Below, piece by piece: positions 20,278-42,752 of a DNA stretch of 63,810 nucleotides. The DNA comes from Fibrobacterales bacterium (GTDB lineage: Bacteria; Fibrobacterota; Fibrobacteria; Fibrobacterales; JAOPTW01), in the NCBI GenBank assembly GCA_051532055.1, contig JAOPTX010000021.1, positions 1 through 63,810 of the forward strand, read 5' to 3'. Numbering within the stretch: the first letter of the stretch is position 1; every line of letters starts with the position of its first letter. Both the position numbers and the translations under genes were made by a program. The notes beneath the pieces were generated by a model. The model saw only the letters and a list, made by a program, of their open reading frames with translations, had not been told where the DNA came from and searched no databases.

Positions 20278-23200
20278 TTATTGCACTATGCTGTGACTAA
20301 TTTCTGAATTGATCAATAGATCCAAACGACCATGGTTATCATTTACGTGTACTGAAATATTGTCAAGTGAGACACTACCACTTGCGTTGTTATTAATTTC
20401 ACTTTTAAGTTCTATTGCTGATAGCCAAAGGGAGTCCGGGAACCCTGCGGTATTAATGGCGTAGTTTATAAATGGCTGAATGCTAAATGCACCGGTATAG
20501 GTGTTTAAGGTGTCATTACTGTGTCGAAATTGAAAATATCGATATCCATCCTCATATTGGTGGCAAAGATCAAAAGTAATTTGATTAGACTTTATTTCTT
20601 CAATCAAACTGGGGTTTATCGCATTTAGATCACATGCCCAGCGGCCAGGATTCCAGTTTAAGAATATCGGCATTTCAGAATATATTATACCGTGGCTATG
20701 AGGTGATGGTATTTCTGTGGTGAATACCAGATTAATCATATGGGCAAAGAACTCGTCATTTTCTGAAGTGATCTCTAGATTTTCAATATCTAACATTAAA
20801 GAGTTGATGTTGGATATTTGAATAGGGAGTATGGTTGTTGAAGAGGTATTTGGGAGTAGAAAGACTGGATTATCTCCGTATCCATGGGTTCCTAATTGAA
20901 TGCCAACGTGGTCTGGTCTATCGCTACCTCCAAGACAAATATCTCTACTAAAATTCCATAGGAGGGTACCACTGGTTTCTATTGACGTTTGATAAATGGC
21001 TTGGTCGCATGCTAACTCTCTGCTCCCCCATGCCTCATTAAATAGTCTGAAATCACCCAGTTCAAAGCTATGAGCAGATTCAAAAGAGGTTGAATCGTGA
21101 TACGTGTCAATGTGAGCATATATATGGAGGCCTGGTTGCGTCACACGTATGGATAATAGAGTGTCTATGATACTGCCTGATTCAATGAGAATACCAGCAT
21201 CAAAACTCCAAGTGTTGAACCCTAAACGTGGTGTTGATACTTGAATAATATGGTTAGGTGAAACTGAAATAGTGTCTGGTTTAGTACAGCTTTCAAGTGG
21301 ATTACATTGGATGATTAGTGATCCGGTCACACTGGGTGATTCTTCGGATATCAATGAAATACCATTACAGGTGACAAGGGCGTAGAGGTAATAGCCAAAA
21401 TCATTTGTTGTGATTGTATAGGTGTTAGCGTTTGCTCCTTGTAAGGCGATTCCACCAAAGCTTGAGTTGGGGGTGCGATACCACTGATACTCTATTGTAA
21501 TATCTGAATCTATATCGTTACACCCAAGATTATTGATTGTTAAAGTGCTGTCAATATGTGAATTGCCAGAGAGGATGGGTTGTTGTGTAAAAACGGAAGG
21601 GTCATCGACAGGAGTAATATCGAGATATATAGATATGGTGTCACCGAAAAGTGGTGTGTCTTGATAATTGATGGAGAGGAGCACAGAATCAAGACCCGTT
21701 GCATTGGTATCTGATTTGTAAGAGAGTATACCATTTTGAGAGAGTAAAATGTTTCCTTTTGAGGATTGCTTTTGGATGTTCCAGATTAGAGGTGAGCTTT
21801 CGTTGGTATCTATTTTTAGTTTTACAAGATCTGTTAGCTGTTGGTCTTCTTGAATGATGATAGAGGAGAGTGGTTTGTTGAGAATAGTTAACGGAGTATC
21901 GTTGGTATTTTGAATTGAGAGAGTAATTGAATCAGCGGTGCTTTCAAGGGAGTCATGAACCGAGATGAGACACTTTATTTCTGAGGCTTGTTCAAAGTCG
22001 AATGATTCTAGTGGGGTGATCATTCCCGTTATAGAATCAATAATGAAACGATCATCGTGGATTGTAAATCGAAGAGCATCATTGTCTGTATCGCTCGCTA
22101 TAACCGGGCCAAATGATGTTAATGAGTTCTCGGATATCATAAATTGTTGAGGAAGTATTACGGGTGGAGTATTTATTTTAACTGTGATTGAATCAATAGC
22201 TGTGTTTGAGTCATTGTCTATTATCATTATAGAAATTGGTAAAAGTGCTCCTGGTGTATTGGGTACGATTAACTGTACTGGATTACCAATAACCTGAAAT
22301 TGTGTTGCCATGCCATGCTTTAGCCAAATAGACTCCACTGTTCCACTGTTAAGGGTGTCTGTGGCTAAAAAGTCAATCTGAATAGTATCATTTGCTTTGA
22401 CGGCTTTATGGGGTTGAAGGGTCAGTGATGGCTTTGTGTTCCATGGGTTTATTGCTGTAAAGTTGATTATGGGGGTTGTTATGTTGAACCCTTTTTCCAT
22501 AAACCCTGTTCGATTGTTTAATGGATTGTAAATGTGAACTTCAGCGTTATAGTATTCACTTGTACTCGATGTTTCCCATAATCCATTGAATTCTCCGGTG
22601 AGTGGATCATAGGACGTAGGTCTGAGTATGGTGTCTTGAAGAGAGTCCCCTGTTATGATTATGTTGATACTTGAAACATCAGATTTGTTGTCTGCAATTG
22701 AGCCATTAAATGTAAAGTTTTTAGTGGGGTTTGTTGGCTCTGTTGGCTTTGCGTATTGGGGGAGTGATGCGATGAGTTGAGAAAGGGTATCTGTTGAGGG
22801 GAGTAATTTGGAAAATAGCAATTCAATAGGATGATTATGGAGAACTGCAGAGTCTTTAAGTGCAGTTAAAAACCGTATTGTATCTGGAGTTTGGGCTATG
22901 GTATACGAGTGTATATTGTGGTCTTTGAAGGCTTGGTATATAAAATGCAGATTGGTGTCACTTGATGTGAATACAATTGCAATAGCACTATTTGTTAATA
23001 GTGCTATGTTGTTTTCGACGGTATTTTTAAAATTGAGGGAGTCATTCAATGAATCGGGTAATGGGTGCCTTACGTTGTTGTATTTGTTAATCAACGTGCT
23101 TGATAATGTATCCATCAATGTAGGTGGCATTATGTTGGGTTGATCTATTATAAAATCTGCGTGCTTATGGGCTATAACTACACCATCAGAATAGCACGAA

Positions 23201-23484
23201 TATTTAATGGTGATGTTTGATTTGCGAGTGCTTTGTATTGGGATTGTGATTATGGATTTGTTTGTTATTGAGTCTATAAGAGTGGATTCAATATCATTAT
23301 TGTTATATAAGTAACGAGTAGATTCTTGGTCAGATATTTTATGAACAATAACACTATCTAGTATCGTTTCAGGAGAAGTCATTATGGTAATAGTGTATTC
23401 TCTTTCATAGGAAGTGTTACTTGGGAGTTGACATGAAGAGATTATAAAAAGTAGAGAAAGAAGTAAATATTTATGAAAAGACAT
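20278..23484 (-). CDS. Surface lipoprotein: Ig-like base, cadherin/Ig-like stalk, C-terminal GH12-like domain
   Basis: Start reassigned to MSFHKY with lipobox ISSC; cadherin motifs (ISEN, ASDTD, FDFEQ, NTNDTP); last ~250 aa align by eye with the neighbouring GH12-like genes. Confidence 0.75.
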   Translation of the reverse strand: MSFHKYLLLSLLFIISSCQLPSNTSYEREYTITIMTSPETILDSVIVHKISDQESTRYLYNNNDIESTLIDSITNKSIITIPIQSTRKSNITIKYSCYSDGVVIAHKHADFIIDQPNIMPPTLMDTLSSTLINKYNNVRHPLPDSLNDSLNFKNTVENNIALLTNSAIAIVFTSSDTNLHFIYQAFKDHNIHSYTIAQTPDTIRFLTALKDSAVLHNHPIELLFSKLLPSTDTLSQLIASLPQYAKPTEPTNPTKNFTFNGSIADNKSDVSSINIIITGDSLQDTILRPTSYDPLTGEFNGLWETSSTSEYYNAEVHIYNPLNNRTGFMEKGFNITTPIINFTAINPWNTKPSLTLQPHKAVKANDTIQIDFLATDTLNSGTVESIWLKHGMATQFQVIGNPVQLIVPNTPGALLPISIMIIDNDSNTAIDSITVKINTPPVILPQQFMISENSLTSFGPVIASDTDNDALRFTIHDDRFIIDSITGMITPLESFDFEQASEIKCLISVHDSLESTADSITLSIQNTNDTPLTILNKPLSSIIIQEDQQLTDLVKLKIDTNESSPLIWNIQKQSSKGNILLSQNGILSYKSDTNATGLDSVLLSINYQDTPLFGDTISIYLDITPVDDPSVFTQQPILSGNSHIDSTLTINNLGCNDIDSDITIEYQWYRTPNSSFGGIALQGANANTYTITTNDFGYYLYALVTCNGISLISEESPSVTGSLIIQCNPLESCTKPDTISVSPNHIIQVSTPRLGFNTWSFDAGILIESGSIIDTLLSIRVTQPGLHIYAHIDTYHDSTSFESAHSFELGDFRLFNEAWGSRELACDQAIYQTSIETSGTLLWNFSRDICLGGSDRPDHVGIQLGTHGYGDNPVFLLPNTSSTTILPIQISNINSLMLDIENLEITSENDEFFAHMINLVFTTEIPSPHSHGIIYSEMPIFLNWNPGRWACDLNAINPSLIEEIKSNQITFDLCHQYEDGYRYFQFRHSNDTLNTYTGAFSIQPFINYAINTAGFPDSLWLSAIELKSEINNNASGSVSLDNISVHVNDNHGRLDLLINSEISHSIVQ

Positions 23485-23542
23485 AGGTTGCTCGTATGTG
23501 TACGTAAAGAAAAAGTATGATTTTAAAGGTAGAAAAATTTTA

Positions 23543-23560
23543 TGTAAATAAATCTTTACA
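23543..23560. promoter_or_regulatory. Palindromic operator TGTAAA-N6-TTTACA (TyrR-box-like)
   Basis: TGTAAA TAAATC TTTACA about 60 nt upstream of the lipoprotein start; recurs at 38971 and, with one mismatch, at 31184. Confidence 0.6.
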
Positions 23561-23632
23561 GTTGAACGGGTAGTTTGTGGAATATGGCCGATAGGTAAAT
23601 ACTGTAAACTGATAATTGTTTTATTTCCAAAT

Positions 23633-23660
23633 AAAAAAGCACCCCAGGGTGAGGTGCTTT
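23633..23660 (-). terminator. Intrinsic terminator of GH12-like gene 1
   Basis: AAAGCACCTCACCCTGGGGTGCTTTTTT on minus strand. Confidence 0.8.
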
Positions 23661-23685
23661 GAAAATGTGACAATAGTGTGGAAGA

Positions 23686-25047
23686 TTACTGAATCTTAAC
23701 TGCTTTCATGATATAGAGCCCTTCAGATGTCTCTTTTGATGAGTGCAATAAGATGTTTTTTGATTCAGACTGTGCTTCGAATTGTGTAACGACATTACCA
23801 AGTGCGTCAAAGAGTGATACCGAATAACGGCCTTCTTCTTTTACTTTGATTGCTGTGGCTGATTGCGTTGGAGATACTCGATACATGAGTGATGTACCGC
23901 TGTTGGTATTGGTGTTATTGAACAATGCACTTGTTTCTGAGCTTTCTTCTTGTTTCTCTTCAGAAGATTCAGCTTGTGAAGACTCTTCTCCCACTTCTTC
24001 ATCACTGGATGATTCGCTCGAAGATTGTGTGGCAGATGAAGGTTCAATACTTGAGCTCGAGCTTGAGACTGTTTCGCTTGAGCTTGAAACGGCTTCACTT
24101 GATGATTCTGGTTCTGAACTTGATGATACTATTTCAGTAGGATCAAAGAATTCAACACCTCGTGATTCGCCATTAACTTCAAAAGTCAGGTCTTTCCAGC
24201 TTACAGTGCCACTGGTCCCGTCGTCAATTTCAGTGCCGAGCTCCAGTCGAGACACCCATAAGTCTCCAGAGAATCCAGCATTGTCAACAAGCCATTGGAT
24301 AGTTTTTTTGACATCTAAAACCCCGGTATAGTTATCGACACTTTTCCAATCTGCGCCATCGCCAGTTCTAAATTGATAATATCTCCATTGAGGGCTTTGG
24401 TTTGGAGGCCAGTTGTCATCTTGGTGGCAGAGGCGGTAGTTTTGACCACTCAAATCGAAGCCGCCACCTTTGTTACATTCCCATCGCCCACCATTCCATC
24501 CAAAAAAGATCATGAGTTCTGCGTAAGCCTTATCGTGATTTCCCGTAATTGGGTGTTCCTCTGTAAACCACATCTCAAAATTTAAGTTCCATGATCCGCC
24601 ATCACCCAATGAAATTCTGTAATCATTGATGTCGATACTCATTGAATTAATATTTTTAATTTGAATGGGGAGTAAATCAGTTGAAGAGTAGTCGGGGGTT
24701 GTTACTAAATTTTTTGCTGTTCCAAAAGGGTGGACGCCAAACTCAATTTCAGGATAATCTGGTTTTCCACCACCTCCTCCACAACCATATCGATGGAAGT
24801 CATAACCAAAACTTCCATCGTCACGTACAAAGCTGGTGTACTCTGAATTGCCGCATCCGAGCTCTTTTGAGCCCCAGTTGTTGTTTATGAGTCTCATATC
24901 CCCTAATTTAAACCAATCAAGTGGTTCGCTTGTCTCTACTCCTTTTTTGGTGTTCTCTACGCCCATTTCATCGGGTGCGCCAATCGCAGTAGATGAAATT
25001 ACAGCAATTGCACCTAAAAAGGCGCATAACTTGGTATGTCCAATCAT
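23686..25047 (-). CDS. Secreted GH12-like glycoside hydrolase with Ser/Glu-rich linker and T9SS-like C-terminal tail
   Basis: Signal peptide; INNNWG, YPEIEFG, AELMIFF, LGTEI match the GH12 pattern with both catalytic Glu; tail VSLFDALGNVV...EGLYIMK; GGAG RBS favours ATG 25047. Confidence 0.75.
   Translation of the reverse strand: MIGHTKLCAFLGAIAVISSTAIGAPDEMGVENTKKGVETSEPLDWFKLGDMRLINNNWGSKELGCGNSEYTSFVRDDGSFGYDFHRYGCGGGGGKPDYPEIEFGVHPFGTAKNLVTTPDYSSTDLLPIQIKNINSMSIDINDYRISLGDGGSWNLNFEMWFTEEHPITGNHDKAYAELMIFFGWNGGRWECNKGGGFDLSGQNYRLCHQDDNWPPNQSPQWRYYQFRTGDGADWKSVDNYTGVLDVKKTIQWLVDNAGFSGDLWVSRLELGTEIDDGTSGTVSWKDLTFEVNGESRGVEFFDPTEIVSSSSEPESSSEAVSSSSETVSSSSSSIEPSSATQSSSESSSDEEVGEESSQAESSEEKQEESSETSALFNNTNTNSGTSLMYRVSPTQSATAIKVKEEGRYSVSLFDALGNVVTQFEAQSESKNILLHSSKETSEGLYIMKAVKIQ
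23756..23992. repeat. Direct repeat copy 1 (~235 nt identical to 25415-25651)
   Basis: Base-by-base comparison; near-identity extends over the whole linker and tail. Confidence 0.95.
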
Positions 25048-25288
25048 TATTTTCTCCATGTAGTATGTTCGAGTTGTGTGAGCTCGAATGAGTATTGAGT
25101 GTTGTGTACTCGATTTGTTGTGTTGACAATTAATCTACACTTAAATTGGGGGAGTGTGGATGCTGTAAATATTACTTTTAGGAAGGTAATAGGGTAATTA
25201 GTGTTTTTTGTAAAATAATGTGGGTATACTCGATCTAGATGTCTTTCATATTTGCAGGACAGTAGACACGCATTCGGGGTTAAATGAT

Positions 25289-25315
25289 AAAAAAGCACCT
25301 CATAATGAGGTGCTT
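25289..25315 (-). terminator. Intrinsic terminator of GH12-like gene 2
   Basis: AAGCACCTCATTATGAGGTGCTTTTTT on minus strand; same outer stem as 23633-23660. Confidence 0.8.
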
Positions 25316-25344
25316 ATACAATGTAACGATTTTGTGCTAAAAAT

Positions 25345-26685
25345 TTACTGAATCTTAACTGCTTTCATAATATAGAGCCCTTCAGCGGTCTCTTTTGATG
25401 GGTGCAACATAATATTTTTTGATTCAGACTGTGCTTCGAATTGTGTAACGACATTACCAAGTGCGTCAAAGAGTGATACCGAATAACGGCCTTCTTCTTT
25501 TACTTTGATTGCTGTGGCTGATTGCGTTGGAGATACTCGATACATGAGTGATGTACCGCTGTTGGTATTGGTGTTATTGAACAATGCACTTGTTTCTGAG
25601 CTTTCTTCTTGTTTCTCTTCAGAAGATTCAGCTTGTGAAGACTCTTCTCCCTCTTCTTCATCACTAGATGATTCGCTCGAAGACTGTGTGGCAGATGAAG
25701 ACTCAATACTTGAGCTTGAGACTGCTTCGCTCGAGCTTGAAACAGCTTCACTTGATGATTCTGGTTCTGAGCTTGATGATACTACTGCTGTAGGATCAAA
25801 AAATTCAACACCACGAGACTCCCCATTCACATTAAAGGTAACATCGTCAAAGGTGACTGTTCCAGATGTCCCATCATCAATTTCAGTGCCGAGTTCGAGA
25901 CGTGCAACCCATAGGTCCTCAGAAAACCCTGCATTAGCAACAAGCCATTGAAGTGCTTCTTTGACATCTAATGTGCCATTAAAACTAGTGTTCCTGGCGG
26001 CATCATTGCCCCCGTCGCCAGAACGAAACTGATAATATCTCCACCCACCCCAGTCATCTCTTTGATGGCAGAGTCTATATGTTTGGAAGTATTGATCTGT
26101 TTCACAGGGTACCCATCTATTTTGATTCCACCCCCAGAAAATCATGAGTTCTGCATAGGCATTCTCATGAGAGCCTGTTACGGGGTCCTGGTCAGTTAAC
26201 CACATTTCGAAGTTTAGGTTCCAGCTTGCATCGTTTGTTAAGTCGATACGGTAATTGGTAATGTCAATTGTTAAGTTATCAATGTCTTTGATTTGTAGAG
26301 GGAGTAGATCTGTTGATGAGTAGTCTGGTGTGGTTACGAGCCCTTTATTTACTCCAAATGGATGAATACCAAATTCTATTTCGGGATAATCTGGTTTCCC
26401 TTTGTCGCCACCATTACAGTTGAATCTTGAAAAATTCCATCCAAAAGACCCATCATCGTTTACAAAAATTGAGTAATCATTGTTGCATCCTAGTTCTCTT
26501 GTGCCCCAGTCATTATTAATAAGACGCATATCGCCAAGCTTAAACCATGCTAGTGACTCATTGTCTGTTGTGTCTTTTTGGGGTACATTCTCAACTCCCA
26601 TTACATCTGGTGCAGCAAGAGCGGATGTCGCCATGCAACCAGTAACAGCCAAGAGAGTAAAAACCCTTTTGAATTCAATCATCAT
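25345..26685 (-). CDS. Secreted GH12-like glycoside hydrolase paralog 2
   Basis: INNDWG, YPEIEFG, AELMIFW, LGTEI; same linker and tail as paralog 1. Confidence 0.75.
   Translation of the reverse strand: MMIEFKRVFTLLAVTGCMATSALAAPDVMGVENVPQKDTTDNESLAWFKLGDMRLINNDWGTRELGCNNDYSIFVNDDGSFGWNFSRFNCNGGDKGKPDYPEIEFGIHPFGVNKGLVTTPDYSSTDLLPLQIKDIDNLTIDITNYRIDLTNDASWNLNFEMWLTDQDPVTGSHENAYAELMIFWGWNQNRWVPCETDQYFQTYRLCHQRDDWGGWRYYQFRSGDGGNDAARNTSFNGTLDVKEALQWLVANAGFSEDLWVARLELGTEIDDGTSGTVTFDDVTFNVNGESRGVEFFDPTAVVSSSSEPESSSEAVSSSSEAVSSSSIESSSATQSSSESSSDEEEGEESSQAESSEEKQEESSETSALFNNTNTNSGTSLMYRVSPTQSATAIKVKEEGRYSVSLFDALGNVVTQFEAQSESKNIMLHPSKETAEGLYIMKAVKIQ
25415..25651. repeat. Direct repeat copy 2
   Basis: Identical to 23756-23992 (offset 1659). 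Confidence 0.95.
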
Positions 26686-26918
26686 TTCTCCATTTGTGTG
26701 CGCAAAATCACGCTATATTCCCGATACTAATCTATATAAAAACGGGGGTCTGTGGATTGAATTTTCAATGAATTTGTGCTTTATACACTAACTTGAGGGG
26801 GTGAAGATAATACATTGCAGATTGAAGGGTGCTAGATTGCATCGAGCTTGTAACTTTTGCCTAAGTGCTCAACAAAAGTTGCAGTGCGCAAATTGATGTA
26901 ATATGAGTTTTTGGTAAT

Positions 26919-26946
26919 AAAAAAGGGGCTCTAATAGAGCCTCTTT
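26919..26946 (-). terminator. Intrinsic terminator of 1359-aa adhesin gene
   Basis: AAAGAGGCTCTATTAGAGCCCCTTTTTT on minus strand. Confidence 0.8.
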
Positions 26947-26972
26947 GAATTAAAAACTATTATGGTTTGCAA

Positions 26973-31052: not shown

Positions 31053-31085
31053 GTGTACCCCAATTGTTATGTGCCGTGTTATGAC

Positions 31086-31201
31086 GCTTACAAATTCAAT
31101 TATGTGATTTGAATGTAAAGATAGGAATCACATGGGGGGTGTCAATGTTGAGGTGATGGAGATCACATAATGGGGTTATGTGTTGTAAATAGTGCTTAAC
31201 A
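31086..31201 (-). promoter_or_regulatory. Putative promoter with CRP-like and TyrR-like boxes and TTGTAAGC
   Basis: TTGACA (31145-31140)-N16-TATCTT; GGTGA-N6-TCACA at 31152-31167; TGTAAA-N6-TTAACA at 31184-31201; GCTTACAA at 31086-31093. Confidence 0.6.
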
Positions 31202-31289
31202 TTTCTTTAGGTGTGAGATAAGGTTTGGTTGTTTGGGTTGTGCCTTTTTGGGGTACATCACTCACAACTGGGTATTGAATAAATAAAAT

Positions 31290-31317
31290 AAAAAAGGGGC
31301 TCTAATAGAGCCCCTTT
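31290..31317 (-). terminator. Intrinsic terminator of the giant adhesin gene
   Basis: AAAGGGGCTCTATTAGAGCCCCTTTTTT; near-identical to 26919-26946. Confidence 0.82.
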
Positions 31318-34300: not shown

Positions 34301-37300
34301 TTCACGGGTAAAGGTGTGAGGAGGTAAAGAAAAGCTAGCGCCAGTTTCAGTTACTATATCAGCCATAGATCCCGATCCACCATTTGCAGTAAAGGTAACC
34401 GATTGCTCTACAGGTGTCCAAAGAGCATAGAATGTTTTATCTGCTGGTCCCATTATATACGTTTCACCAGGGTTATACTCTACCGATGTAGCGGTAGGGT
34501 ACGATGCCCAGCCTTTGAAAGTATAGCCACTTCGTGCTATATTGCCTTTTGGTGGCATAGGGTTAGGGTCATCGGTTGATGCAATTATTGATGAAACAGA
34601 TCCGGTACCCTGATTACTATTGAAACTAAGAGTATGGGATTGAGCTTCCCATTTGGCCCAGAGATTAATGTCGGTAATACCAACTGAAAGCTGATCTCCG
34701 GTATTGTATTCTACAGGCCCTTGGCTTGAAGTAGCCCAGCCTCTATAGGTATATCCATCTCTGACATAATCACAAGTGGGAACCGTAAATGAGGAATTCG
34801 ACGCTGCAGAGCTCGATGGCATGGTGCCACTCCCGCCATTTTCATGATACGTAATAGTATTCATATCTGCCTTCCATCGGGCAAATAATTCGAGGTCTTC
34901 TGCGGGCATGGTGATCTGCTGCTTATCTTGATAAGCGAGTGATCCATTGAGTGAAATGGACCAGCCATCAAAGAGATAGCCATCTTTTTCAAAGAGATTG
35001 GTAGAGAGTGATAGCGGGTGAGAAGTATAGGCTCTTTGCTCAGGCATAGTGCCACTCGTATTATCATTGCCATTGAATTCTACTGAGTTCTCGATTGCAC
35101 TCCAGACGCTATACAGTGTAAAGCTTTGAGCGCGGATTGAAATTTGAGCACCATCATTGTGATCAACATTTCCGCCTGAAGTTTCTGACCAGCCTGAAAA
35201 AGTGTATCCAGTTCGGCTAAAGGTACTGAGAGGGATCGTTACCACGTCATCGGTATTACCAGTTATTGAGGTCATTGACCCACTACCACCACCACTATTA
35301 AAGTCGATTGCATTTTCATTAGCACCCCATTGGGCATAGAGGTTAAGGTTGCTGTGTCCAAAATCAAAGTCAGCATTATCATCGTACACAACTTGACCTT
35401 GTGAGCTTGTTGACCATCCAAGGAAACGGTACCCGCTTTTAGTGAATATATTACCATCAAGTGCAATGTATTCGTCTGAAAGTACTGTTCTATCACTCAT
35501 TGAACCATTGGTAGCACCATTTCTATAGTATTTGAGTGTGTGTTGTTTCGGGCTCCAAAGAGCATAGAGTGAAACATCTTTAGCTTCCATGGTAAATAGT
35601 TCACCATCAGTTTTACTTATATTTCCTTTAGGGCTGAGCGACCAGCCTGCAAAAGTATAGCCATCTTTTTCAAAAAGGTTGGGAGAGAGTGAAGATGTTT
35701 GGTTCATTAATAGTGCTTGTTGATTCATTGCGTTCTGACCAGAATTAGCTTCAAACGTAATTCTATAAGTGTTAGGGTTCCATTGAGCCCAGAGTGTTAC
35801 ATTAGATGTTGGCATAGTAATTGAAGCCTCATCATCAAACTCAATAGCGCCTTGTGCAGACCGTGCCCATCCAGCAAATGAGTGGCCGGATAACGTAAAC
35901 TCATTGTTTTTTAGGGTCACCTGTGCGTCTGATACAGCCTTCTGTGGAAGCATACTATTGGTGCCACCATTCGGATTAAAGTAGATGTTGTTTGTTGTTG
36001 GCGTCCAGGTCGCATAGAGAGCAATATTTTGAGTCCCCACCTGAATGTCATCTTCATCAGAATAGAGTGCTGTGCCGTTTTTGCTCGTTGCCCATCCATC
36101 AAAGCGATAGCCTACTTTAGTGAAAGTATTTGTAGGGAGTACGGCAATATGGTCTGAGAGAACGTTCAGTGAAGGCATTAATTCTGAACCACCATTTGCG
36201 TTAAAGCTAATAGTATTTGCAGTTGCGCTCCACACTGCGAAAAGAACAGTATTTGATATGCCCATTGTAAAATTTGTGGCGCCATCAGAATATATGACTG
36301 AGCCATTTTGAGTAGTAGCCCAACCCAAAAATGCATACCCTGCTCGAGTAAATCTGTTTGGATTCAGTGTGATTGTTTCATCTGATGATGCGTATTGAGT
36401 ATCCATAGTGCCATGAGTAGCTCCGTTTCCGTCAAAATCGAGGCTATTTTCATTTGGCTGCCAAACAGCATAGAGAGTAATGCCATTAGGATCCATTGTG
36501 TAATCAGCTTCATTAGTTAGGGATACGGCACCGGTTGGCGTAACTGCCCAACCCGTAAAGTGGTATCCTGCTTTAACAAAAGCACTGACTGGTAGCGTAA
36601 CTACATCGCCTGTGGCAGCAGTGACCGGTTGCATGGTACCTGCTCCACCGTTTTCATTAAAAACGACAGTATTATTAAGAGGTTGCCAAATTGCATAGAT
36701 TGTTTGTGTAGCGACACCCATGGTAAATTCTGCAGCGTTATTATAAATAACACTTCCTGTAGGCTCAGTTGACCAACCGAGAAATGCATATCCCGCTTTT
36801 GCAAAAACATTAGATGGAATTGAAATAGTGCTATCAGTTGGTATCTCCAATGCGCCCATGATACCACTTCCGGTATTGGGGCTAAAGATAAGACGGTTTC
36901 TGTTAGGCATCCACGTAGCATAGAGGGTTGCACCCGTTGTTCCCATTGTGTAAGGGGTGTTATTTGCAATAGTGTATGCATCGGTGGCAGAAATGGCCCA
37001 TCCAGTAAAGTGATATCCTGCTTTAGTAAAGGTGTTTGGAGGGAGTGTTGTTGTTGAACCTGTTGATGTTTCAATAGAGCTCATAGTTCCTGTTCCACTA
37101 TTGGGATCAAATTGAATAGTGTTGTTAATAGGATTCCATTTGGCAAAAACTACAGTATCTTGTGAAAGGTGATCGGCAGTGAAATTCCATTCTGTAGCCG
37201 TATTAGATTCTTTGTACCATCCACCAAAGGCATATCCCTGTTTGGTCGGTGCTGTTGAAGGTTCAGGTATGATTCCCCCCTGCTTTACCATTTGATCAGT

Positions 37301-38821
37301 AAAAATTCCATCCCCGCCATTAAGGTTATAAGAGGCTAAGTAGTGTGAAACGGTTATGGTGTCAGAGACTGTGTTATGGTCATCATCTATAGCTTGTAGA
37401 ATATACTTGAATGAGCCTGTTGTGTAATTAAAGGCTAATGATCCCGTTGTTTCTGTGTTAAAAAGAGTCCAGGTTGTGTCTGATTCTTCTTTAAGTGAGT
37501 AAGAGGTGATTGATCCAAATTGATCCGTGCCACTCCAAGTGAAAAAGAGGGAGTCGATTTCAGGGGATGTTGCTTCTGAATAAGTGAGTGAGACGACTGG
37601 TGCATCTTGAAGAATAGTAACCAGGGTGGTTGACTCAACAATGTTGCCATCATTATCAGTCACTTTAATTGTTACGGGGTAGTTGCTTTGTGCTGTACTT
37701 GGAAGTTGTAGTGAAAGGGTGGGCGAAGATGTTTCAATATAATCACCGGTGCCATGCTTCCATTCAGTAAGAGTGATGGAGCCTTGGTTGAGTGAATCAC
37801 CAGAGTTAAAATACAGAGGAATAATGTCGTGTATAGATGCATTGGGAAGGGGGGTAATGGAAATCCATGGCTTGGCATTCCAGGCATCAATTGGAGGTAC
37901 TGTTATGTTGAGAGATTGCAAGGTAAATGATTGTGTTGCTATTCCTGTAAGGCGCTCTTTTGCATCAAAGGCATTCATCTCAATAGCATAGTTTTGGCCT
38001 GGTCTACGAATATCAAAAAAGCCTTTGTAGGTGCTGTTAGCAATGTCATAGCTGATAGGGACATTTGTTGGAGCAAGGAGGCTGTCTCCTGTGATAATAA
38101 TTGAGACACTATCGATAGATCCTCCGTTGGCAGAAAAAGAGCCAGAGAAGTTAACGCGCTTTGTTGGGTCGGGGTATGCTATAACAGTAGTTGTTGCTAA
38201 GCTACTATGAAACGCATCGGTTACCGTAAAGGTGGCGCTGTATGTTCCGGGAGAAGAATAAGAACATTCGAAGCTTGTAGAAGATGCTGCTGAAGGAGTA
38301 GCTGTTTCACTACAGAGAGAGGAGAATGTTACTGCAGCATCATCATCACTCCATGTAGGAGTGAGTGTTGCAGCGTCCCCAACCATTACTTTCAGAGTAT
38401 CTGGGAGCGATACTATTGGCTTGAGATTTACAGGCTTTGCATCTAAAGTATAATGAGTCCCTACTGGAGTAAGGCTGGCTGTGTCAACCACAAAGGTTTC
38501 AACCTGTTTGCCTATATAGGTGTGTGCAGTATACAGCTGATACTCAATGGAAATAGATTGACCCAAAAATTGTTCAATAGCAATGTGCTGTTGATTGGAT
38601 TTGACCTTTAGGGTATCACTCGTTGTTCCGGTAGTAGTAATAGAAACTATTGAGTCGGCATTGGTGTTCATCGACTGTGTTTCAATGATGTATGCAAGGG
38701 TAAATGAAGAGTTTTGTGAAGATGATGCTGAGTCTTCTGCTTTTTCTGGATCATCAAATATACATGATGTCGAAAGGAGAGCCATCATGGCTAATATAGT
38801 AAAAAGAATATATCGAAACAT
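31343..38821 (-). CDS. Giant surface lipoprotein (~2490 aa): PKD/Ig-like base, 23 InlB-B repeats, Big_2, FISUMP domain
   Basis: Start reassigned to MFRYIL (AGGAG RBS), lipobox-like STSC; 23 G(Y/H/F)...W repeats counted; QVWMASNL...FSIRCVMD. Confidence 0.85.
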   Translation of the reverse strand: MFRYILFTILAMMALLSTSCIFDDPEKAEDSASSSQNSSFTLAYIIETQSMNTNADSIVSITTTGTTSDTLKVKSNQQHIAIEQFLGQSISIEYQLYTAHTYIGKQVETFVVDTASLTPVGTHYTLDAKPVNLKPIVSLPDTLKVMVGDAATLTPTWSDDDAAVTFSSLCSETATPSAASSTSFECSYSSPGTYSATFTVTDAFHSSLATTTVIAYPDPTKRVNFSGSFSANGGSIDSVSIIITGDSLLAPTNVPISYDIANSTYKGFFDIRRPGQNYAIEMNAFDAKERLTGIATQSFTLQSLNITVPPIDAWNAKPWISITPLPNASIHDIIPLYFNSGDSLNQGSITLTEWKHGTGDYIETSSPTLSLQLPSTAQSNYPVTIKVTDNDGNIVESTTLVTILQDAPVVSLTYSEATSPEIDSLFFTWSGTDQFGSITSYSLKEESDTTWTLFNTETTGSLAFNYTTGSFKYILQAIDDDHNTVSDTITVSHYLASYNLNGGDGIFTDQMVKQGGIIPEPSTAPTKQGYAFGGWYKESNTATEWNFTADHLSQDTVVFAKWNPINNTIQFDPNSGTGTMSSIETSTGSTTTLPPNTFTKAGYHFTGWAISATDAYTIANNTPYTMGTTGATLYATWMPNRNRLIFSPNTGSGIMGALEIPTDSTISIPSNVFAKAGYAFLGWSTEPTGSVIYNNAAEFTMGVATQTIYAIWQPLNNTVVFNENGGAGTMQPVTAATGDVVTLPVSAFVKAGYHFTGWAVTPTGAVSLTNEADYTMDPNGITLYAVWQPNENSLDFDGNGATHGTMDTQYASSDETITLNPNRFTRAGYAFLGWATTQNGSVIYSDGATNFTMGISNTVLFAVWSATANTISFNANGGSELMPSLNVLSDHIAVLPTNTFTKVGYRFDGWATSKNGTALYSDEDDIQVGTQNIALYATWTPTTNNIYFNPNGGTNSMLPQKAVSDAQVTLKNNEFTLSGHSFAGWARSAQGAIEFDDEASITMPTSNVTLWAQWNPNTYRITFEANSGQNAMNQQALLMNQTSSLSPNLFEKDGYTFAGWSLSPKGNISKTDGELFTMEAKDVSLYALWSPKQHTLKYYRNGATNGSMSDRTVLSDEYIALDGNIFTKSGYRFLGWSTSSQGQVVYDDNADFDFGHSNLNLYAQWGANENAIDFNSGGGSGSMTSITGNTDDVVTIPLSTFSRTGYTFSGWSETSGGNVDHNDGAQISIRAQSFTLYSVWSAIENSVEFNGNDNTSGTMPEQRAYTSHPLSLSTNLFEKDGYLFDGWSISLNGSLAYQDKQQITMPAEDLELFARWKADMNTITYHENGGSGTMPSSSAASNSSFTVPTCDYVRDGYTYRGWATSSQGPVEYNTGDQLSVGITDINLWAKWEAQSHTLSFNSNQGTGSVSSIIASTDDPNPMPPKGNIARSGYTFKGWASYPTATSVEYNPGETYIMGPADKTFYALWTPVEQSVTFTANGGSGSMADIVTETGASFSLPPHTFTREGFTFVKWEEVISGIQYNSRARVTISAGGLNLKAIWSQNSILITYNSGAGLGANTSQNALAESQTTLDTHPFSKQGYTFIGWSLTLNGSVEFSPGASIVWPTVNTTLYAQWSAGNTIITYNANSGVGTDRTQTEAADSDVALQSNSFTKAGYSLAGWALSQGGAVEYTDEETITWPTTDLSLYAVWGAGLVPIRFEANNGSGDVSTQQGTADQQKNIQSNSFTKEGYAFQGWSTSANGSVQYAEQQEITWPTTQFTLFAKWTQSLVTIHFNPHSGSGTVFSQSALADSDTKLDSHTFAKTGYTFSGWSLSRGGSVDYLNTAEIQWPTHTTTLYAVWTAGSIDITLNANGGLGNNRTQTGTADSRISIIPNTFSRTGYQFGGWAYSTTAQTADFIGGQEITWPTSATTLYAVWTPNTIALQFLPNLGSGSATQSALAGSQTALAPNHTITRTGYTLSGWSWTTNGTADYQTGDEITWPTAPRALYAIWDAASITIRLNSDGAGSPDQTQTSTADQATALKTTPFSRSGYTFSGWATTQGGTVTHQNGATITWPTATITLYAVWNAQSHAVTFNKYPTTGVGGATNAQSCNTGTQLTLSSNGYTRVGYTFSGWSLASGGTTVAYSNGAVINCPTTGTLSLYSMWSANTQTITYNSNGGSGSISSLTTTTGASVTLNSGSTFTKSGYALSGWATSANGAIAYTLSQAITMPANNLILYAKWAEIKVTSIIINRTSFSMIMYRDTSTLSAIAYPTHAHNTDFTWNSSAPNVATITSGIITVTGPGVTTISATADDDSGVSASITITVSQFKDNREFNLLYKMVRIGDQVWMASNLTYNPTTGSSICRDGSDYNCEEEYGRFYWFSGALNGDQASSANPSTTQGACPDHWHIPSKSEWEQLFTFVNNNANKLKSTTRWSTSPGTDDYGFNLLPNGMYHSRGGYQGNSDTSSELWSSNESPSYETRFYNSSTTNIVSISPLAEAFSIRCVMD

Positions 38822-38863
38822 ATTACTCCTGTTTGTTAGTGTGTGTTTTAAAGTCCCAATTGT

Positions 38864-38988
38864 GCTTACAATGCATAGAGAATATTCAGGGTTAAATGTA
38901 GCAAGGGCTCGATGAGTGTCAATTGGAATATTGGTGTATGTGAAAATGCTCACATTGGTGAACAGTTGTTTGTAAATAATCGTTTACA
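38864..38988 (-). promoter_or_regulatory. Putative promoter with perfect CRP-like and TyrR-like boxes
   Basis: TTGACA (38922-38917)-N16-TACATT; TGTGA-AAATGC-TCACA at 38939-38954; TGTAAA-TAATCG-TTTACA at 38971-38988; GCTTACAA at 38864-38871. Confidence 0.7.
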
Positions 38989-39036: not shown

Positions 39037-39063
39037 AAAAGCCACCTCGAACGAGGTGGCTTT
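39037..39063 (-). terminator. Intrinsic terminator of 667-aa gene
   Basis: AAAAGCCACCTCG-AA-CGAGGTGGCTTT. Confidence 0.8.
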
Positions 39064-39090: not shown

Positions 39091-41094
39091 TTAATTCTTA
39101 ACGCACCGTATACTGAATGCCTCTGCAACAGGTGACCAATCATTAAATGTCATTTCATTATTGGCACTTGAAATGCCTACATAGTGATTAAGGCTGTGGT
39201 TTGAGGTTAGAAAATATGCGCCCCTATTGTCATACAGATGCCCGCCACGTCCATGATACATACCATATGGCGTTAAGTTTAAGCTGGACTCATTGTTTCC
39301 TGTATTGTCGAGCCACAAGTCGGTAGATTTGAGGGGTAGTGTACTGTTGCCTACTGTGGTATAAAGTTCTTGCCATTCGAGTTTGCTTGGAAGATGCCAG
39401 TTGTCAGGACAGGCGCCTTGGGTAGTACTTGGATTGGTATTGCTGGGAAAGTCACCATTTAAAGCCCCACTAATATAATAGTACCTACCAAATTCTTCAC
39501 AATCTACATCTGGTGCACATACGCTACTGCCAGTTGGTGAATCATATACGAGGTTTTCCGACATCCAGACTTGACTGCCAATTCGAGTCATGTCATAGGT
39601 GCGCCCAAAGCCCCGAGTGTCTCTAAATTGAGAAACTGAAGCGATTGCTGACGCTGATGCCCCCCCTCCATCTGCTGCGGTGGCAGTGATTATTGCTTCT
39701 CCAGGTCCTGTTGCAGTTACGACACCTTGTTGATTGATGGTTGCAACGAGGGGGTTATTAGAAGACCAGATTATTTCTTTATTTGGTGCATCTGTTGGAA
39801 GTGCTGTTGCTGTTAATGTCATCATGTCACGACCCATGATCATAGAAAAATGAGTGATGCTAATCTCAATACTGGTTACGAAGGCGGCTTCCCATACTGC
39901 ATATAATGTTGTGGGTGATGATGGCCAAATAATTCTTTCGTTGTCAAGATAGGTAACAACTCCACCTGGAGATGTACTCCAGCCAAGGAAGATATGGCCA
40001 TTTTTTTGAAATTCATTTGATATGAGATTGGTAGAAACGTGAGCAGGTTCTGATTGTGAAGGCGTATTTCCTGTGCCACCATTAGGGTCAAAGGTCGTAG
40101 TATATAACTGTAAGCAATGAGTAGTATTTACACCGCCATCACGTGTCATAAGTTCCCAAGAATCACCATCATAGAGACAGGAAATTCCTGAACCTATCCA
40201 ATAAAAAGCTTGATTTTTTGTTGGGTTTAGAGGTTGTTGAGTAAATGCACCAAGCCATTCAATACCCAGGCCATCAGTACCGTTGTGGCCGTCAGTACCA
40301 TTGGCACCATTGGTACCATTTATTCCGGCTTGTCCTTGTGGTCCCATATGGCCCATAGGTCCTTGTTCGCCACGGGCACCTGTATTGCCTATTGCGCCAG
40401 GGAGTCCTTGATCACCAGTGTCACCTTTAGTTCCTGGAAGACCGAGCTCTCCTTGTTCTCCTTTGGGGCCCGTTGCACCAGTTTCACCAAGTGCAAAGGT
40501 TTCCCATGAACCATTTTTAAATACAAAGCTCTGCCCTTCTGAGCTATGGTGAAATGCTTCACCTTCAACGGGGGCGTCAGGGTATTGGTCGAGCTCTCCA
40601 AGCCATGATACAGTAATGCCGCGTTCGGGGGCTTCGACTGTATACACTTCAAACTCATAGAGTGAAAAGCCATATTGAGTTGCTCGTGAAATGAGTTCAA
40701 TATTAATATAACGGTATGATCCATATGAATCGGTGTATGTATCGATGCCGCCATTACTATTGGATGTTGATTTTAATTGAGTCCAAGTGCTATTGTCATT
40801 GGAACCATGGATTTTGTATGAGTTTCCATAGGCAGCTTCCCATATAAGAACTATTTTTTCGATGGGGTAAGACTTGCCAAGATCGAGCTTATACCACTGG
40901 TTGTTGTAGAAGTTTGATGACCAACGCGTAGTCATGTTGCCATCAACAGCCTTGGAGGGGCTTAATGAGCTTGACTCACTACTAGAGGCGGTTGCTGATT
41001 TATTACCCGACACTTTAATAAATGTTTGTGCGGATAGAAGTGATGTTAATATACATAAAAAGAATAGAAGGGTTCTAAACTTAGGTTTGAACAT
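39091..41094 (-). CDS. Secreted protein: F5/8 type C (CBM32/discoidin) domain, collagen-like repeat, 1 InlB-B repeat, Big_2, FISUMP domain
   Basis: SPI-type signal; ATASS, AVDGNMTTRWSS, YGFSLYEFEVY; ~24 Gly-X-Y triplets; QVWMSENL...FSIRCVKN. Confidence 0.85.
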   Translation of the reverse strand: MFKPKFRTLLFFLCILTSLLSAQTFIKVSGNKSATASSSESSSLSPSKAVDGNMTTRWSSNFYNNQWYKLDLGKSYPIEKIVLIWEAAYGNSYKIHGSNDNSTWTQLKSTSNSNGGIDTYTDSYGSYRYINIELISRATQYGFSLYEFEVYTVEAPERGITVSWLGELDQYPDAPVEGEAFHHSSEGQSFVFKNGSWETFALGETGATGPKGEQGELGLPGTKGDTGDQGLPGAIGNTGARGEQGPMGHMGPQGQAGINGTNGANGTDGHNGTDGLGIEWLGAFTQQPLNPTKNQAFYWIGSGISCLYDGDSWELMTRDGGVNTTHCLQLYTTTFDPNGGTGNTPSQSEPAHVSTNLISNEFQKNGHIFLGWSTSPGGVVTYLDNERIIWPSSPTTLYAVWEAAFVTSIEISITHFSMIMGRDMMTLTATALPTDAPNKEIIWSSNNPLVATINQQGVVTATGPGEAIITATAADGGGASASAIASVSQFRDTRGFGRTYDMTRIGSQVWMSENLVYDSPTGSSVCAPDVDCEEFGRYYYISGALNGDFPSNTNPSTTQGACPDNWHLPSKLEWQELYTTVGNSTLPLKSTDLWLDNTGNNESSLNLTPYGMYHGRGGHLYDNRGAYFLTSNHSLNHYVGISSANNEMTFNDWSPVAEAFSIRCVKN

Positions 41095-41273: not shown

Positions 41274-42752
41274 TTAAGGAGAATAGACAATTCTCAAGCC
41301 AACATATGGATACCGGGTATTCATATCCACATCTAAATAACTCTTCATGTCATGTTGGTCAATATCCGCAGATGACCCACCTTTTCCGCGGACTACAGTA
41401 GGAATTGTTATTCCACTTTCAGTTGCATGGGTCATTTCTGCAACATTACTCGCAATATCGTAAAGCCCTGCGAGGTTGGGGTTGAGAATGCCTCCAGGTT
41501 GAATGATTCCTGAATTATGAGCATATGAAAGAGATTGAGTACTGAGTGAATCTCCCCAAAAATAGTAGATGTCTTCGTAGGGAAGGTTGTAGGCATAGGC
41601 GGCCTCCCATTCTGATTGGGTAGGAAGTCTAAATCCGTTTGCGGTAGTATCGATAATAAGACCTTGAGTGATGCCGTCAGCTTGAAGGAATACTTTTTCC
41701 CCATCAAGTTCTTCTACTGATTTATAAATATAGACAGGGGATCTGGATGTTTTAGTGTCAGTAAATGTGAGTAGATTACAGTACTGAATTACTTCAATAA
41801 ATGTGATATTAGTAACAGGGTATTGTGCTAGAGAAACATCAAGTCTACTTGGGTCAAGTTTTCCCCAAAAATCAGCATGGGTTACTTCAAGGCGAGCGAC
41901 ATAGAGTGAGTCACCAGCAATAACGAGAGGTGCATACGGAGTTTGACTTGATTGTTGGCGTTTGAGTTCTTTCGATGCTTCGATAACAAGAGTATCTGGG
42001 TTTGGTTTAATGAGGCGCCCTGAAAATAGTGGGTTTTTAAAATCATATTTATTCTCATAAAAGCGTGAGAGGTAGATGGAGTCATAGTTCATTGAGGGGA
42101 GGACTTTAATGTAATTATTGTAGTTTTGAACGGTAATAGGTTTGAGAAAAAATGAGTCAAGTACTTGATTGATTATTTCTGATTTTTCAGTTTCTGAAAC
42201 ATAACTACTGAATGCATGCTGGGTAGTGAGCATGGTGTAAAATTTTTGTGATTCCGTTGTAGGGTTAGCGCTTAAGCTGTCTATAATATACTGCTTAAAA
42301 AGATCATAGGTTATAGTGGGCTCATTTACATTGTCGCTGAGAAATTGTTTTAGGGGAGTTACCGTAAGCGTAGGGTCATCAGTTGTATTATCTGTCTGGC
42401 CCGCAATAAATGTTTTTCCAGCATTGACCAAGGCTAGCCCTTTTGAATAACTTGTGTGGAGTACGGATATCTTGTCATCCTTACGAGCCTCAAAAGAGAA
42501 TGTAAGAGAATTCACTCCCGTTGAAGTATTGTAGGCCAAATGGGGAGGTGCTGATTTACTGGTATTGGAATAATATGTTTTTTGAGGTTGTTGAGTGCCA
42601 TTAATAGTGATGATAAATTGAACGCTATCTAGTTGAATATTGCCGGCAATTGTTTGAGAGAATACATATTCTTGTGTGGCACTTGTATCAGAGTTTAAAA
42701 GATCACATCCAAAGAGGGTGATAAGAAGTGGAATAAATAGTCGTAGTATCAT
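41274..42752 (-). CDS. Lipoprotein with C-terminal FGE-sulfatase (SUMF1)-like domain
   Basis: Lipobox LFGC; EVT, PVTNIT, YCN.L, FRLPTQSEWE, PNLAGLYDIASNV, GGS, GLRIV. Confidence 0.8.
   Translation of the reverse strand: MILRLFIPLLITLFGCDLLNSDTSATQEYVFSQTIAGNIQLDSVQFIITINGTQQPQKTYYSNTSKSAPPHLAYNTSTGVNSLTFSFEARKDDKISVLHTSYSKGLALVNAGKTFIAGQTDNTTDDPTLTVTPLKQFLSDNVNEPTITYDLFKQYIIDSLSANPTTESQKFYTMLTTQHAFSSYVSETEKSEIINQVLDSFFLKPITVQNYNNYIKVLPSMNYDSIYLSRFYENKYDFKNPLFSGRLIKPNPDTLVIEASKELKRQQSSQTPYAPLVIAGDSLYVARLEVTHADFWGKLDPSRLDVSLAQYPVTNITFIEVIQYCNLLTFTDTKTSRSPVYIYKSVEELDGEKVFLQADGITQGLIIDTTANGFRLPTQSEWEAAYAYNLPYEDIYYFWGDSLSTQSLSYAHNSGIIQPGGILNPNLAGLYDIASNVAEMTHATESGITIPTVVRGKGGSSADIDQHDMKSYLDVDMNTRYPYVGLRIVYSP

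Follow-up and report, generated by a model that had tools for sequence, protein, structure and literature searches.

The window analysed here is a 63,810-nucleotide stretch from a marine Fibrobacterales bacterium (contig JAOPTX010000021.1), an organism known here from a metagenome assembly alone (genome 94% complete). Seven open reading frames, A to G, span positions 20278–42752 and lie on the minus strand throughout, as described in the initial annotation, where the genes were named by the coordinates of their 3′ ends. The co-orientation is unremarkable, since ung, MBL, ClC, pta and ackA, which flank the seven genes, also lie on that strand.

Four of the genes encode predicted lipoproteins. 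Gene A (ORF 20278–23673; likely start at Met 23484, i.e. 20278–23484, 1068 aa) has the lipobox IISS-C and consists of an N-terminal domain N1a, a helical bundle, a domain M1, a PKD domain, a stalk of cadherin, Big_9 and Ig domains and a degenerate GH12-like tip. Gene D (26973–31052) has a related N-terminal domain (N1b), PKD, M1, a second PKD and an Ig domain, followed by eight InlB B-repeats, Big_2 and a FISUMP tip; gene E (ORF 31343–38953; likely start at 38821, i.e. 31343–38821, 2492 aa) has the same base as D, 22–23 InlB B-repeats, Big_2 and a FISUMP tip. Gene G (41274–42752) is composed of N1a, a likely helical segment and an FGE-like tip, without M1 and without a stalk. The non-lipidated neighbours carry two of the same tip types. 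Gene B (23686–25059) is a secreted GH12-family protein with a Ser/Glu-rich linker and a T9SS-like C-terminal domain, and gene C (25345–26685) is its paralogue (69% aa identity) with the same architecture; the C-terminal domains of B and C score 21.9 and 19.4 bits against TIGR04183 (the type A C-terminal sorting domain; cut-off 23) and 17–18 bits against PF18962 (cut-off 27), below both cut-offs. Gene F (39091–41094) encodes a secreted protein with F5/8C and collagen segments, a single InlB repeat, Big_2 and FISUMP, and lacks both a lipobox and a T9SS-like tail. The differing stalks and tips of the lipoproteins, and the presence of GH12 and FISUMP tips on the neighbours, are as originally described.

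The arrangement of the genes does not support a dedicated island system. In the sister genome G001 it corresponds to two blocks on different contigs, and five of the seven genes have their own terminator-like hairpin directly 3′ of the stop codon, namely B (23636–23660), C (25293–25315), D (26927–26941), E (31293–31317) and F (39038–39063), all on the minus strand. Counts of such sites over the region are at chance level (52 promoter-like sites vs 49.8; 16 terminator-like sites vs 13.9) and only the position of the hairpins was used. The 3′ UTR and terminator of D are near-identical to those of E. D is spanned by an RNA contig of the same sample (26976–31085), a weak observation from one sample. 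RNA contigs cannot rank genes, and their absence over part of A and B carries no weight as evidence.

Domains of the lipoprotein base

Genes A, D and E share a module of ∼190 aa (22165–22722, 29847–30407 and 37604–38164, respectively), as had been proposed. It is made up of two domains, an unnamed beta-sandwich of ∼100 aa, M1 (A, 22432–22722; D, 30114–30407; E, 37871–38164), and a PKD-type Ig domain, M2 (A, 22165–22443; D, 29847–30125; E, 37604–37882). The M1 halves match one another with E-values between 2e-11 and 1e-22, and among the 9,698 ORFs of the genome none outside the family does better than 0.7. M2 superposes on PKD domains with VIA Z scores of 11.6 and 11.4 (rmsd 1.7 and 1.8 Å over 87 and 85 residues) and has a phmmer match to 9kvu at E 7e-4; PKD-type domains number 44 in 21 ORFs genome-wide. 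The similarity of the module is far above chance; the generic PKD/Ig character raised as an objection holds for its second half, an ordinary PKD domain.

Residues G, G, N and P of M1 are near-invariant, and the domain occurs once per protein in 141 of 144 proteins. Of 102 proteins tested, 98 carry a CarboxypepD-like domain ahead of M1, and in 126 of 134 a PKD-like domain comes after it; M1 is also found in non-lipidated proteins and behind other N-termini. It has no Pfam or NCBIfam match, its comparisons with the CarboxypepD_reg and PKD profiles give probabilities below 7% (no profile-level homology), and hhalign relates it to N1 with a probability of 0.2%; neither the M1 nor the N1 profile matches PDB sequences at E <0.1. 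Structurally, M1 comes closest to the pilotin ExsB (Z 8.5, rmsd 2.9 Å, 98/108 residues) and a second pilotin scores Z 7.4, but CBM20, a pilin domain, DUF4876 and FnIII (7.5) all fall within 1 Z of ExsB, at identities of 3–13%. ExsB, CBM20, DUF4876 and CarboxypepD_reg are grouped in SCOP as prealbumin/transthyretin-like sandwiches, and M1 superposes on such sandwiches (ExsB, CBM20, DUF4876) with Z 7.3–8.5 over 85–98 residues. In the Atlas, the best leads for M1 with a named family are CarboxypepD_reg clusters (0.78–0.79, leads only); all M1 leads are below 0.9 and N1 with the helices has no usable match, from which neither novelty nor absence follows.

In gene A, N1a (23149–23412) is modelled as a seven-strand beta-sandwich right after the predicted lipidated Cys, with FnIII/Ig-like fold matches at Z ∼7 and a conserved Arg near the N-terminus, before strand 1. 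It is followed by ∼115 residues of helices (22765–23109, boundaries approximate), assigned by DSSP on the models and similar to segments of paralogues, whereas a PKD-type domain comes after N1b in D and E. The two AlphaFold models of N1a and the base of A have mean pLDDT values of 87 and 91; Foldseek searches with both returned multi-domain or weak matches only and barely probed the helical bundle. An N-terminal likeness had been suggested for all four lipoproteins. Against an N1 profile built without rows from the locus, A (E 1e-23) and G (E 4e-14) score strongly, and D (E 2.2) and E (E 3.6) show a remote likeness; N1b of the latter two constitutes a sister subfamily that joins A on iteration only (E 9e-5).

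A profile search of the genome found N1 in 25 ORFs, every one with a lipobox-type Cys, and M1 in 11; M1 is missing from 15 of the 25 N1 genes, G among them. There were 23 N1 matches in G001 and none in a further genome, G002. Among 201 genomes of the phylum, N1 occurs in four and M1 in 31; the largest family sampled, with 78 genomes, gave no M1 match. Looking for longer N1 homologues among 8000 scored candidates yielded four proteins, a weak sign of rarity. Thus, with at least 25 dispersed N1 lipoproteins, the family is genome-wide rather than the dedicated island system initially envisaged, and its base consists of N1 (with a helical bundle or PKD), M1 and PKD. N1 and M1 are two unnamed domain families, of which M1 occurs across the phylum and N1 is expanded in one genus.

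Stalks, tips and their exchange

The stalks differ in type and length, and the tips differ between related bases. The 25 N1 genes carry FISUMP (8), FGE-like (3), GH16-like (2), GH12-like (1), RCC1 (1) and DUF285 (1) tips, the other nine having none or an unassigned one. The FGE-like tip of G matched two PDB sequences, one of which is the binding protein TvpA (available text of PMC5758913).

FISUMP is present genome-wide on 45 ORFs as 50 domains, and in a quick tree of these 50 domains the tips of D, E and F formed one clade (SH-aLRT 99) despite the fact that the N-terminus of F is unrelated to those of D and E. In G001, an E-like gene (base 50% identical to that of E, same clade at 99) and an F-like gene (first 400 aa 51% identical to F) both end in PKD and Kelch domains, with 55% mutual identity across the last 658 aa. 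F and its G001 homologue are 47–63% identical up to approximately residue 360 and 11–25% beyond the InlB B-repeat (39886–40104, minus strand), so that F resembles its homologue upstream of the repeat and D and E downstream of it. Neighbours in one genome thus carry a common tip, and in the sister genome this common tip is a different one, with the switch in the InlB repeat; two ancestral clusters with differential loss could also account for the contrast. At the position of A, G001 has a 2068-aa lipoprotein with a base of A's kind and a BspA-LRR tip. Its base is 28% identical to that of A and 40% to that of another paralogue, and the gene may therefore be a replacement rather than the product of a tip swap.

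Of 16 reciprocal base pairs across the two genomes, 12 keep their tip, which makes tip exchange occasional. Mapped onto the base tree, the eight tip classes require eight changes (minimum seven, mean of shuffled sets 12.5), i.e. tips mostly track the bases. What stands of the proposed modular evolution by domain swapping is therefore the base–stalk–tip architecture and real tip exchange, not free mix-and-match.

The GH12-like tips fall into two kinds. Of 42 columns near-invariant among 117 homologues, B retains 41 and C all 42, with the conserved substrate-cleft pattern, whereas the tip of A (20335–21099) retains 24 without this pattern, having lost 18 residues that include the third acid and two Trp. 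A, B and C all keep both catalytic glutamates, the nucleophile in ELM and the acid/base in GTE, so that residual activity of A is possible. B matches Rhodothermus Cel12A (PDB 2bw8) at E 0.004 with the AELMI nucleophile motif aligned; PF01670 is assigned to 29 of the 120 homologues listed and B and C miss the Pfam threshold of E 0.01. The tips of A, B and C represent a divergent, uncharacterised GH12 subfamily, of which A's copy is degenerate.

Genes B and C probably encode secreted GH12 glucanases of an ordinary kind; the polysaccharide attack suggested initially fits them but is a poor fit for the degenerate tip of A. The tip of A grouped with B and C (seven-row set, FastTree, support 95), and the B/C clade is its likely donor, but A's tip is 35% identical to C vs 33–34% to unrelated homologues, and this placement is uncertain as both the tip and the base of A are long branches. 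Elsewhere in the genome the two GH16-like tips are without the catalytic motif ExDxxE; in G001, another N1 lipoprotein has a better-kept GH12-like tip (33/42). Enzyme-fold tips on N1 bases are degenerate and, given the loss of conserved residues, would serve to bind polysaccharide instead of cleaving it.

Function of the family and its relation to known systems

The lipoproteins of the locus belong to a genus-wide family, and we consider it probable that they act as single-chain surface adhesins, in which a base and a repeat stalk hold a variable, putative glycan-binding tip off the cell. The Cys would be lipidated and the protein placed on the external side of the outer membrane, where N1, the helices, M1 and PKD may serve as structural spacers beside the membrane. 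Acidic residues follow the Cys in 20 of the 25 N1 genes (A itself has a net charge of 0), for which the p-value of 0.023 is overstated because it applies a Bacteroidota rule with a crude background to non-independent paralogues. At an assumed 3 nm each, the 22–23 repeats of E would measure ∼70 nm, beyond the periplasm if extended. The tips (FISUMP, FGE-like, GH12- and GH16-derived pseudo-enzymes, Kelch, LRR, RCC1) may bind polysaccharide or other cells; no ligand of FISUMP is demonstrated in the literature consulted. New members would arise by tandem duplication with occasional unequal recombination between the stalk repeats of adjacent genes, whereby a lipoprotein could take over the 3′ end of its neighbour.

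Several other explanations were weighed. The lipoproteins might display active hydrolases on stalks, attacking polysaccharide along with B and C. The intact appearance of B and C, the two glutamates of A and the 33/42 tip in G001 are consistent with this, but we find it rather unlikely given the 18 residues gone from A, the GH16-like tips lacking their motif, the restriction of glycoside-hydrolase folds to 3 of the 25 N1 genes and the prevalence of FISUMP, the commonest tip, which has no known catalytic role. Tip variation that is mostly neutral duplication debris, on periplasmic or released scaffolds, would agree with several tipless N1 genes and with F having neither a lipobox nor a T9SS-like tail; intact frames of up to 7.5 kb, the retention of base and tip in the reciprocal pairs, the very long repeat stalks and the acidic residues after the Cys make it quite improbable. 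The FISUMP-like and FGE-like tips belong to the C-type-lectin-type target classes of diversity-generating retroelements (available text of PMC5758913). Diversification of the tips by such an element is nevertheless rejected as having next to no probability: the 94%-complete genome yielded three reverse transcriptases, assigned to DRT3a, DRT3b and UG5-nitrilase and none of the retroelement type, and G001 has none; no template repeat with adenine-biased mismatches was detected at any of 49 gene ends, nor were there variant letters in the DNA run over 16000–35999.

Two further explanations concern the base. M1, or N1 with the helices, might be dedicated to docking or export and bind a partner that is secreted or sits in the outer membrane. 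The single copy of M1, its fixed context, its near-invariant residues and the pilotin matches point in this direction; other folds score nearly as well as ExsB, though, M1 is missing from most N1 genes, including G, and it occurs on non-lipidated proteins and after other N-termini, so that a role as spacer is preferred and docking appears improbable. The polymerisation module of the initial annotation would imply bases joined by donor-strand exchange in a type V pilus-like polymer with differing tips. Like the FimA/Mfa pilins of Bacteroidia, which are made as lipoprotein precursors (available part of PMC13655056), the proteins start with a beta-sandwich of similar fold (Z 7–8) and a conserved Arg; the fold searches also returned single pilin domains (5cag, Z 7.8 to M1; 3r4r, Z 7.1 to N1), and FISUMP-like domains occur together with BF2867-like domains on retroelement targets (PMC5758913, available text). 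However, what comes after N1 is, according to the models, a helical bundle or PKD and not a second pilin domain; the Arg precedes strand 1, but the cleavage site of pilins lies behind the anchor strand (PMC13655056, available part). The cluster has no short shaft pilin or recognisable pilus operon, and its genes have separate terminator-like hairpins. The families PF13149 and PF08842 (Mfa_like_1, Mfa2) had no match in the 94%-complete genome, with a positive Bacteroides control, and no pilin Pfam matched the seven genes or their paralogues. Pilin identity was rejected since the models of A lack the tandem transthyretin-like NTD and CTD, and such a polymer is very improbable.

The preferred explanation, single-chain adhesins, places the family close to the fibrillar adhesin-like proteins, which in the accessible text of PMC8286594 and PMC10952558 combine an anchor, a tandem stalk and a terminal domain in one long chain in variable combinations; the present proteins have a similar layout with a predicted anchor, and tandem stalk repeats in one chain are found in A, D and E. 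The best reading is that they are fibrillar-adhesin-like proteins with a lipid anchor and lectin-like tips, of a kind already known but with domains that are new. They differ in the N-terminal predicted lipid anchor, the unnamed N1 and M1, the helical bundle, tips that include degenerate glycoside-hydrolase folds and the concerted sharing of tips by neighbours, and their adhesion is putative. The origin of new adhesins by domain shuffling is known (Monzon et al., 2021, PMC8286594, which lists 27 adhesive domains; Barringer et al., 2023, PMC10952558; available parts of both), and this kind of system is not new. Accordingly, of the claim that the architecture was undescribed, variable combination of stalk and adhesive domain does not stand (PMC8286594, available part), but we found no description of N1, M1 or the lipoprotein family in the largely open-access literature searched. 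FISUMP (TIGR02145, PF09603) is reported in Fibrobacterota in 17–119 copies per genome, is absent in one and has been suggested as a cohesin analogue (PMC4704652, available part); D, E and F end in this domain, which here tops stalks of as many as 23 InlB repeats above a base with N1 and M1.

How Fibrobacterota adhere to insoluble polysaccharide in the absence of cellulosomes continues to be debated. A bolder scheme, which we regard as unlikely, has a new, lineage-specific lipoprotein base capturing adjacent 3′ ends through recombination in the stalk repeats and repeatedly turning captured GH12 and GH16 hydrolases into non-catalytic glycan-binding tips, with M1 as a phylum-wide docking module in a scaffold that replaces the cellulosome; if this were true, M1 would tie the stalks to an outer-membrane or secreted partner as a cellulosome substitute in Fibrobacterota. 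The proteins of this family make up a natural construct set in which one base bears different tips, a recombination joint is directly visible and probable enzymes (B, C) adjoin a putative pseudo-enzyme (A).

The gene cluster and its products

The seven minus-strand ORFs in 20278–42752, lettered from the low coordinate up by their 3′ ends (A, 20278; B, 23686; C, 25345; D, 26973; E, 31343; F, 39091; G, 41274), are transcribed in the order G to A. ORF calls and domain scans bore out the orientation, stalk types and tips (C-terminal domains) of the initial annotation. A lipobox-type Cys opens A, D, E and G. The stalk of A is of the cadherin/Big_9 type and its end is GH12-like; D and E contain 8 and 22–23 InlB B-repeats, respectively, followed by Big_2 and FISUMP; and G ends in an FGE-like domain. 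The other products are F (signal peptide, F5/8C, collagen, one InlB B-repeat, Big_2 and FISUMP) and B and C (signal peptide, GH12-like domain, Ser/Glu linker and a T9SS-like tail that scores below the cut-off); the available text of PMC6851124 describes Fibrobacter enzymes with T9SS-type tails. The cluster has an unremarkable GC content (0.37–0.45) and lies among same-strand housekeeping genes, flanked at one end by ung and an MBL-fold gene and at the other by ClC, pta and ackA.

A hairpin with a T-run directly follows the stop codon of each of F, E, D, C and B, the 3′ UTR is near-identical between D and E, and sigma-70-like sites are found just 5′ of A, D and E, total site counts being those expected by chance. 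One RNA contig (26976–31085) covers almost exactly D, a weak hint of a separate transcript from one sample; the two runs that contain D are marine metagenome records of one and the same sample. The genes of the cluster appear to be individual units rather than a pilus operon. In a DNA run, loose contig ends at 23899 (255 letters) and 26742 (187 letters), in the B linker/tail region and upstream of C, are possibly B/C strain variants.

Elsewhere in the window, 52643–54895 (minus strand) encodes a 750-aa protein with a PorV-like domain (above the cut-off) and a Reg_prop propeller match; the usual PorV is much shorter, and the protein would fit the genome having a T9SS. Radical SAM, Memo and AMMECR1 genes lie within an oligopeptide ABC transporter cluster at 9110–11467 (plus strand), and the ORFs at 13380–13997, 18233–18628, 49905–50546, 54855–55412 and 62001–62579 had no Pfam match at the thresholds used.

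Composition and distribution of the predicted lipoprotein base

The module shared by A, D and E was found where it had been placed (about 22170–22720, 29850–30405 and 37610–38160). In AlphaFold models of the A base (mean pLDDT 87 and 91), a seven-stranded N-terminal domain (N1) and a helical bundle of ~115 residues precede its two parts, a beta-sandwich (M1) and M2. The refuting case named initially, that the module is a generic PKD/Ig domain, holds for one half, because M2 is a PKD domain (structure match, Z 11.4–11.6) and the genome has 44 domains like it, spread over 21 ORFs. M1 is not generic: the A, D and E copies match one another at E 2e-11 or better and non-family ORFs at 0.7 or worse, and a broad M1 profile finds exactly 11 ORFs in the genome, with a single copy in each. 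The tied fold matches of the modelled M1 (ExsB, Z 8.5; CBM20, 7.3–7.9; pilin domain, 7.8; DUF4876, 7.6; FnIII, 7.5) show a common sandwich and indicate no function.

A search of 201 genomes of the phylum found M1 in 31 of them, with 1–4 copies each outside this genus, and in none of the 78 genomes searched of the largest family sampled. Its profile matched 270 proteins in a 50%-identity library; among the best 150 of these, 144 contain the full M1 (single copy in 141), 98 of 102 proteins lacking N1 share homology in the segment that precedes M1, and the following segment is PKD-like in 126 of 134. Pfam calls the preceding segment CarboxypepD_reg in many of the 55 proteins scanned. Many distant M1 proteins have a short Gly/Ser/Thr/acidic tag after the Cys. 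A locus in a further genome (L044:5671–11070) and some 15 library representatives (among them P0034, P0061 and P0099) encode secreted, non-lipidated proteins with a CarboxypepD-like domain, an internal ~100-aa segment which, by eye, we take to resemble a T9SS tail, M1 and PKD repeats; the L044 protein contains M1 twice and ends in FISUMP. In the sister genome, G001, L042:7125–16627 encodes four tandem lipoproteins (CarboxypepD-like domain, M1, PKD repeats) with near-identical N-termini and different ends. A single conserved ~1770–1830-aa protein of many family f4 genomes (L045:4596–10082, L046:3609–8897) matches only the PKD half, not M1.

N1 marks 25 ORFs here and 23 in G001, and a search of 201 genomes of the phylum recovered it in 4. 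One family member has a close homologue labelled Fibrobacterales bacterium. The N-terminal segment proposed as common to all four lipoproteins is strongly supported for A and G, which a control profile built without the cluster sequences still recovered (E 1e-23 and 4e-14), but not directly for D (E 2.2) and E (E 3.6), which it missed. These two seed a second subfamily, N1b, with PKD in place of the helices; its profile found seven more ORFs in the genome and reached A (E 9e-5) on iteration, the only link between the pairs. Since M1 accompanies N1 in 10 of 25 genes and occurs once in a gene without N1, the base is itself modular and the family dispersed over the genome. The literature searched yielded no description of N1 or M1.

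Enzyme-fold tips and evidence of tip exchange

The 25 N1 genes carry FISUMP (8), FGE-like (3), GH16-like (2), GH12-like (1), RCC1 (1) and DUF285 (1) tips, with none or unassigned in 9; FISUMP expansions in the phylum have been described (PMC4704652, available text). B aligns weakly with Rhodothermus Cel12A (E 0.004), and among its 120 listed homologues are 29 with PF01670. In an alignment of 117 homologues, 42 columns are conserved at 95% or more, of which C keeps 42, B 41 and A 24; the A tip, on a very long branch within the set holding B and C, retains both catalytic Glu and has lost the third acid and two Trp. ExDxxE is absent from both GH16-like tips (contig C42), one having its Glu residues replaced by Tyr and Gln in a PDB alignment and the other reading E-V-Y-F-D. 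The G tip has a match in TvpA, which is a binding protein with an FGE fold and not an enzyme (PMC5758913, available text). Because a GH12-like tip on a G001 N1 gene, from a different clade, keeps 33 of 42 columns, the apparent decay of enzyme tips is a trend, not a rule. Two further GH12-like lipoproteins without N1 (C28:25702–27033, C8:55173–56699) belong to a clade separate from B/C.

The cluster flanks are collinear and 82–86% identical in G001, where B and C are kept, directly adjoining ClC. D–G are missing from that locus, and in place of A are a 2068-aa lipoprotein (N1, helices, M1, PKD + Big_9 stalk, BspA-LRR tip) and an 811-aa InlB-FISUMP lipoprotein. A second G001 contig brings together homologues of G (79%), E and F, arranged in another order. 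The E-like and F-like genes there both have PKD + Kelch ends (55% identical over the last 658 aa), whereas D, E and F here share a Big_2 + FISUMP end, their FISUMP tips forming one clade (support 99; quick tree of 50 domains from 45 ORFs). In the base tree, D, E and the Kelch-tipped gene also form one clade (support 99). As far as the InlB repeat F resembles its G001 homologue, and from the repeat onward it resembles D/E; the only portion of the Kelch tip with a homologue in this genome is its PKD part, and the D tip has no G001 match above 48%. This contrast is the best evidence of tip exchange, with the putative joint in the stalk repeat, although it may reflect differential loss of ancestral clusters. 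The domain swapping initially envisaged is supported as tip exchange and not as free mix-and-match, against which tip retention speaks: a comparison of 22 G001 N1 genes gave 16 reciprocal best pairs, with the tip conserved in 12, different in 3 and concealed by an assembly gap in 1, and tip classes need 8 changes on the base tree (minimum 7; shuffled 12.5; 25 rows, 2 unlabelled).

Alternatives and a proposed mechanism

The build of the family resembles that of fibrillar adhesins (Monzon et al., PMC8286594), in which stalks and tips are combined variably and shuffled (PMC10952558), as far as the available texts go. The literature searched gave no description of neighbours' common tips differing between genomes, or of degenerate hydrolase tips. 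Tethering of active enzymes, to which the intact catalytic Glu of A and the 33 columns of the G001 tip might be referred, is improbable given the trend to decay, and M1 as a docking or export module is slightly more so. We infer that the family is surface-exposed; acidic residues follow the Cys, a Bacteroidota rule, in 20 of 25 N1 genes vs 311 of 548 lipoproteins of a crude background (in D, E and G, not in A), and non-exposed proteins or neutral variation seem quite unlikely.

The polymerization module suggested by analogy to type V pilins fares worse: the family shows neither the tandem domains nor the Pfam matches of such pilins, whose features are taken from the available text of PMC13655056, and a type V-like polymer is very unlikely. 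Least likely is diversification of the tips by a DGR, as the family also fails the tests for DGR targets. The genome encodes adjoining DRT3a and DRT3b reverse transcriptases (C39:1827–5019; L062, L063) and a UG5-nitrilase one (C57:9129–12038; L064), all of anti-phage types; a reverse transcriptase search of G001 found none.

Each protein is probably a lipid-anchored single-chain adhesin with a spacer base, a variable-length stalk and a binding tip. Tandem duplication would yield new versions of the family, with occasional recombination between the stalk repeats of neighbours, and sometimes an enzyme domain may be captured and then decay into a binder.
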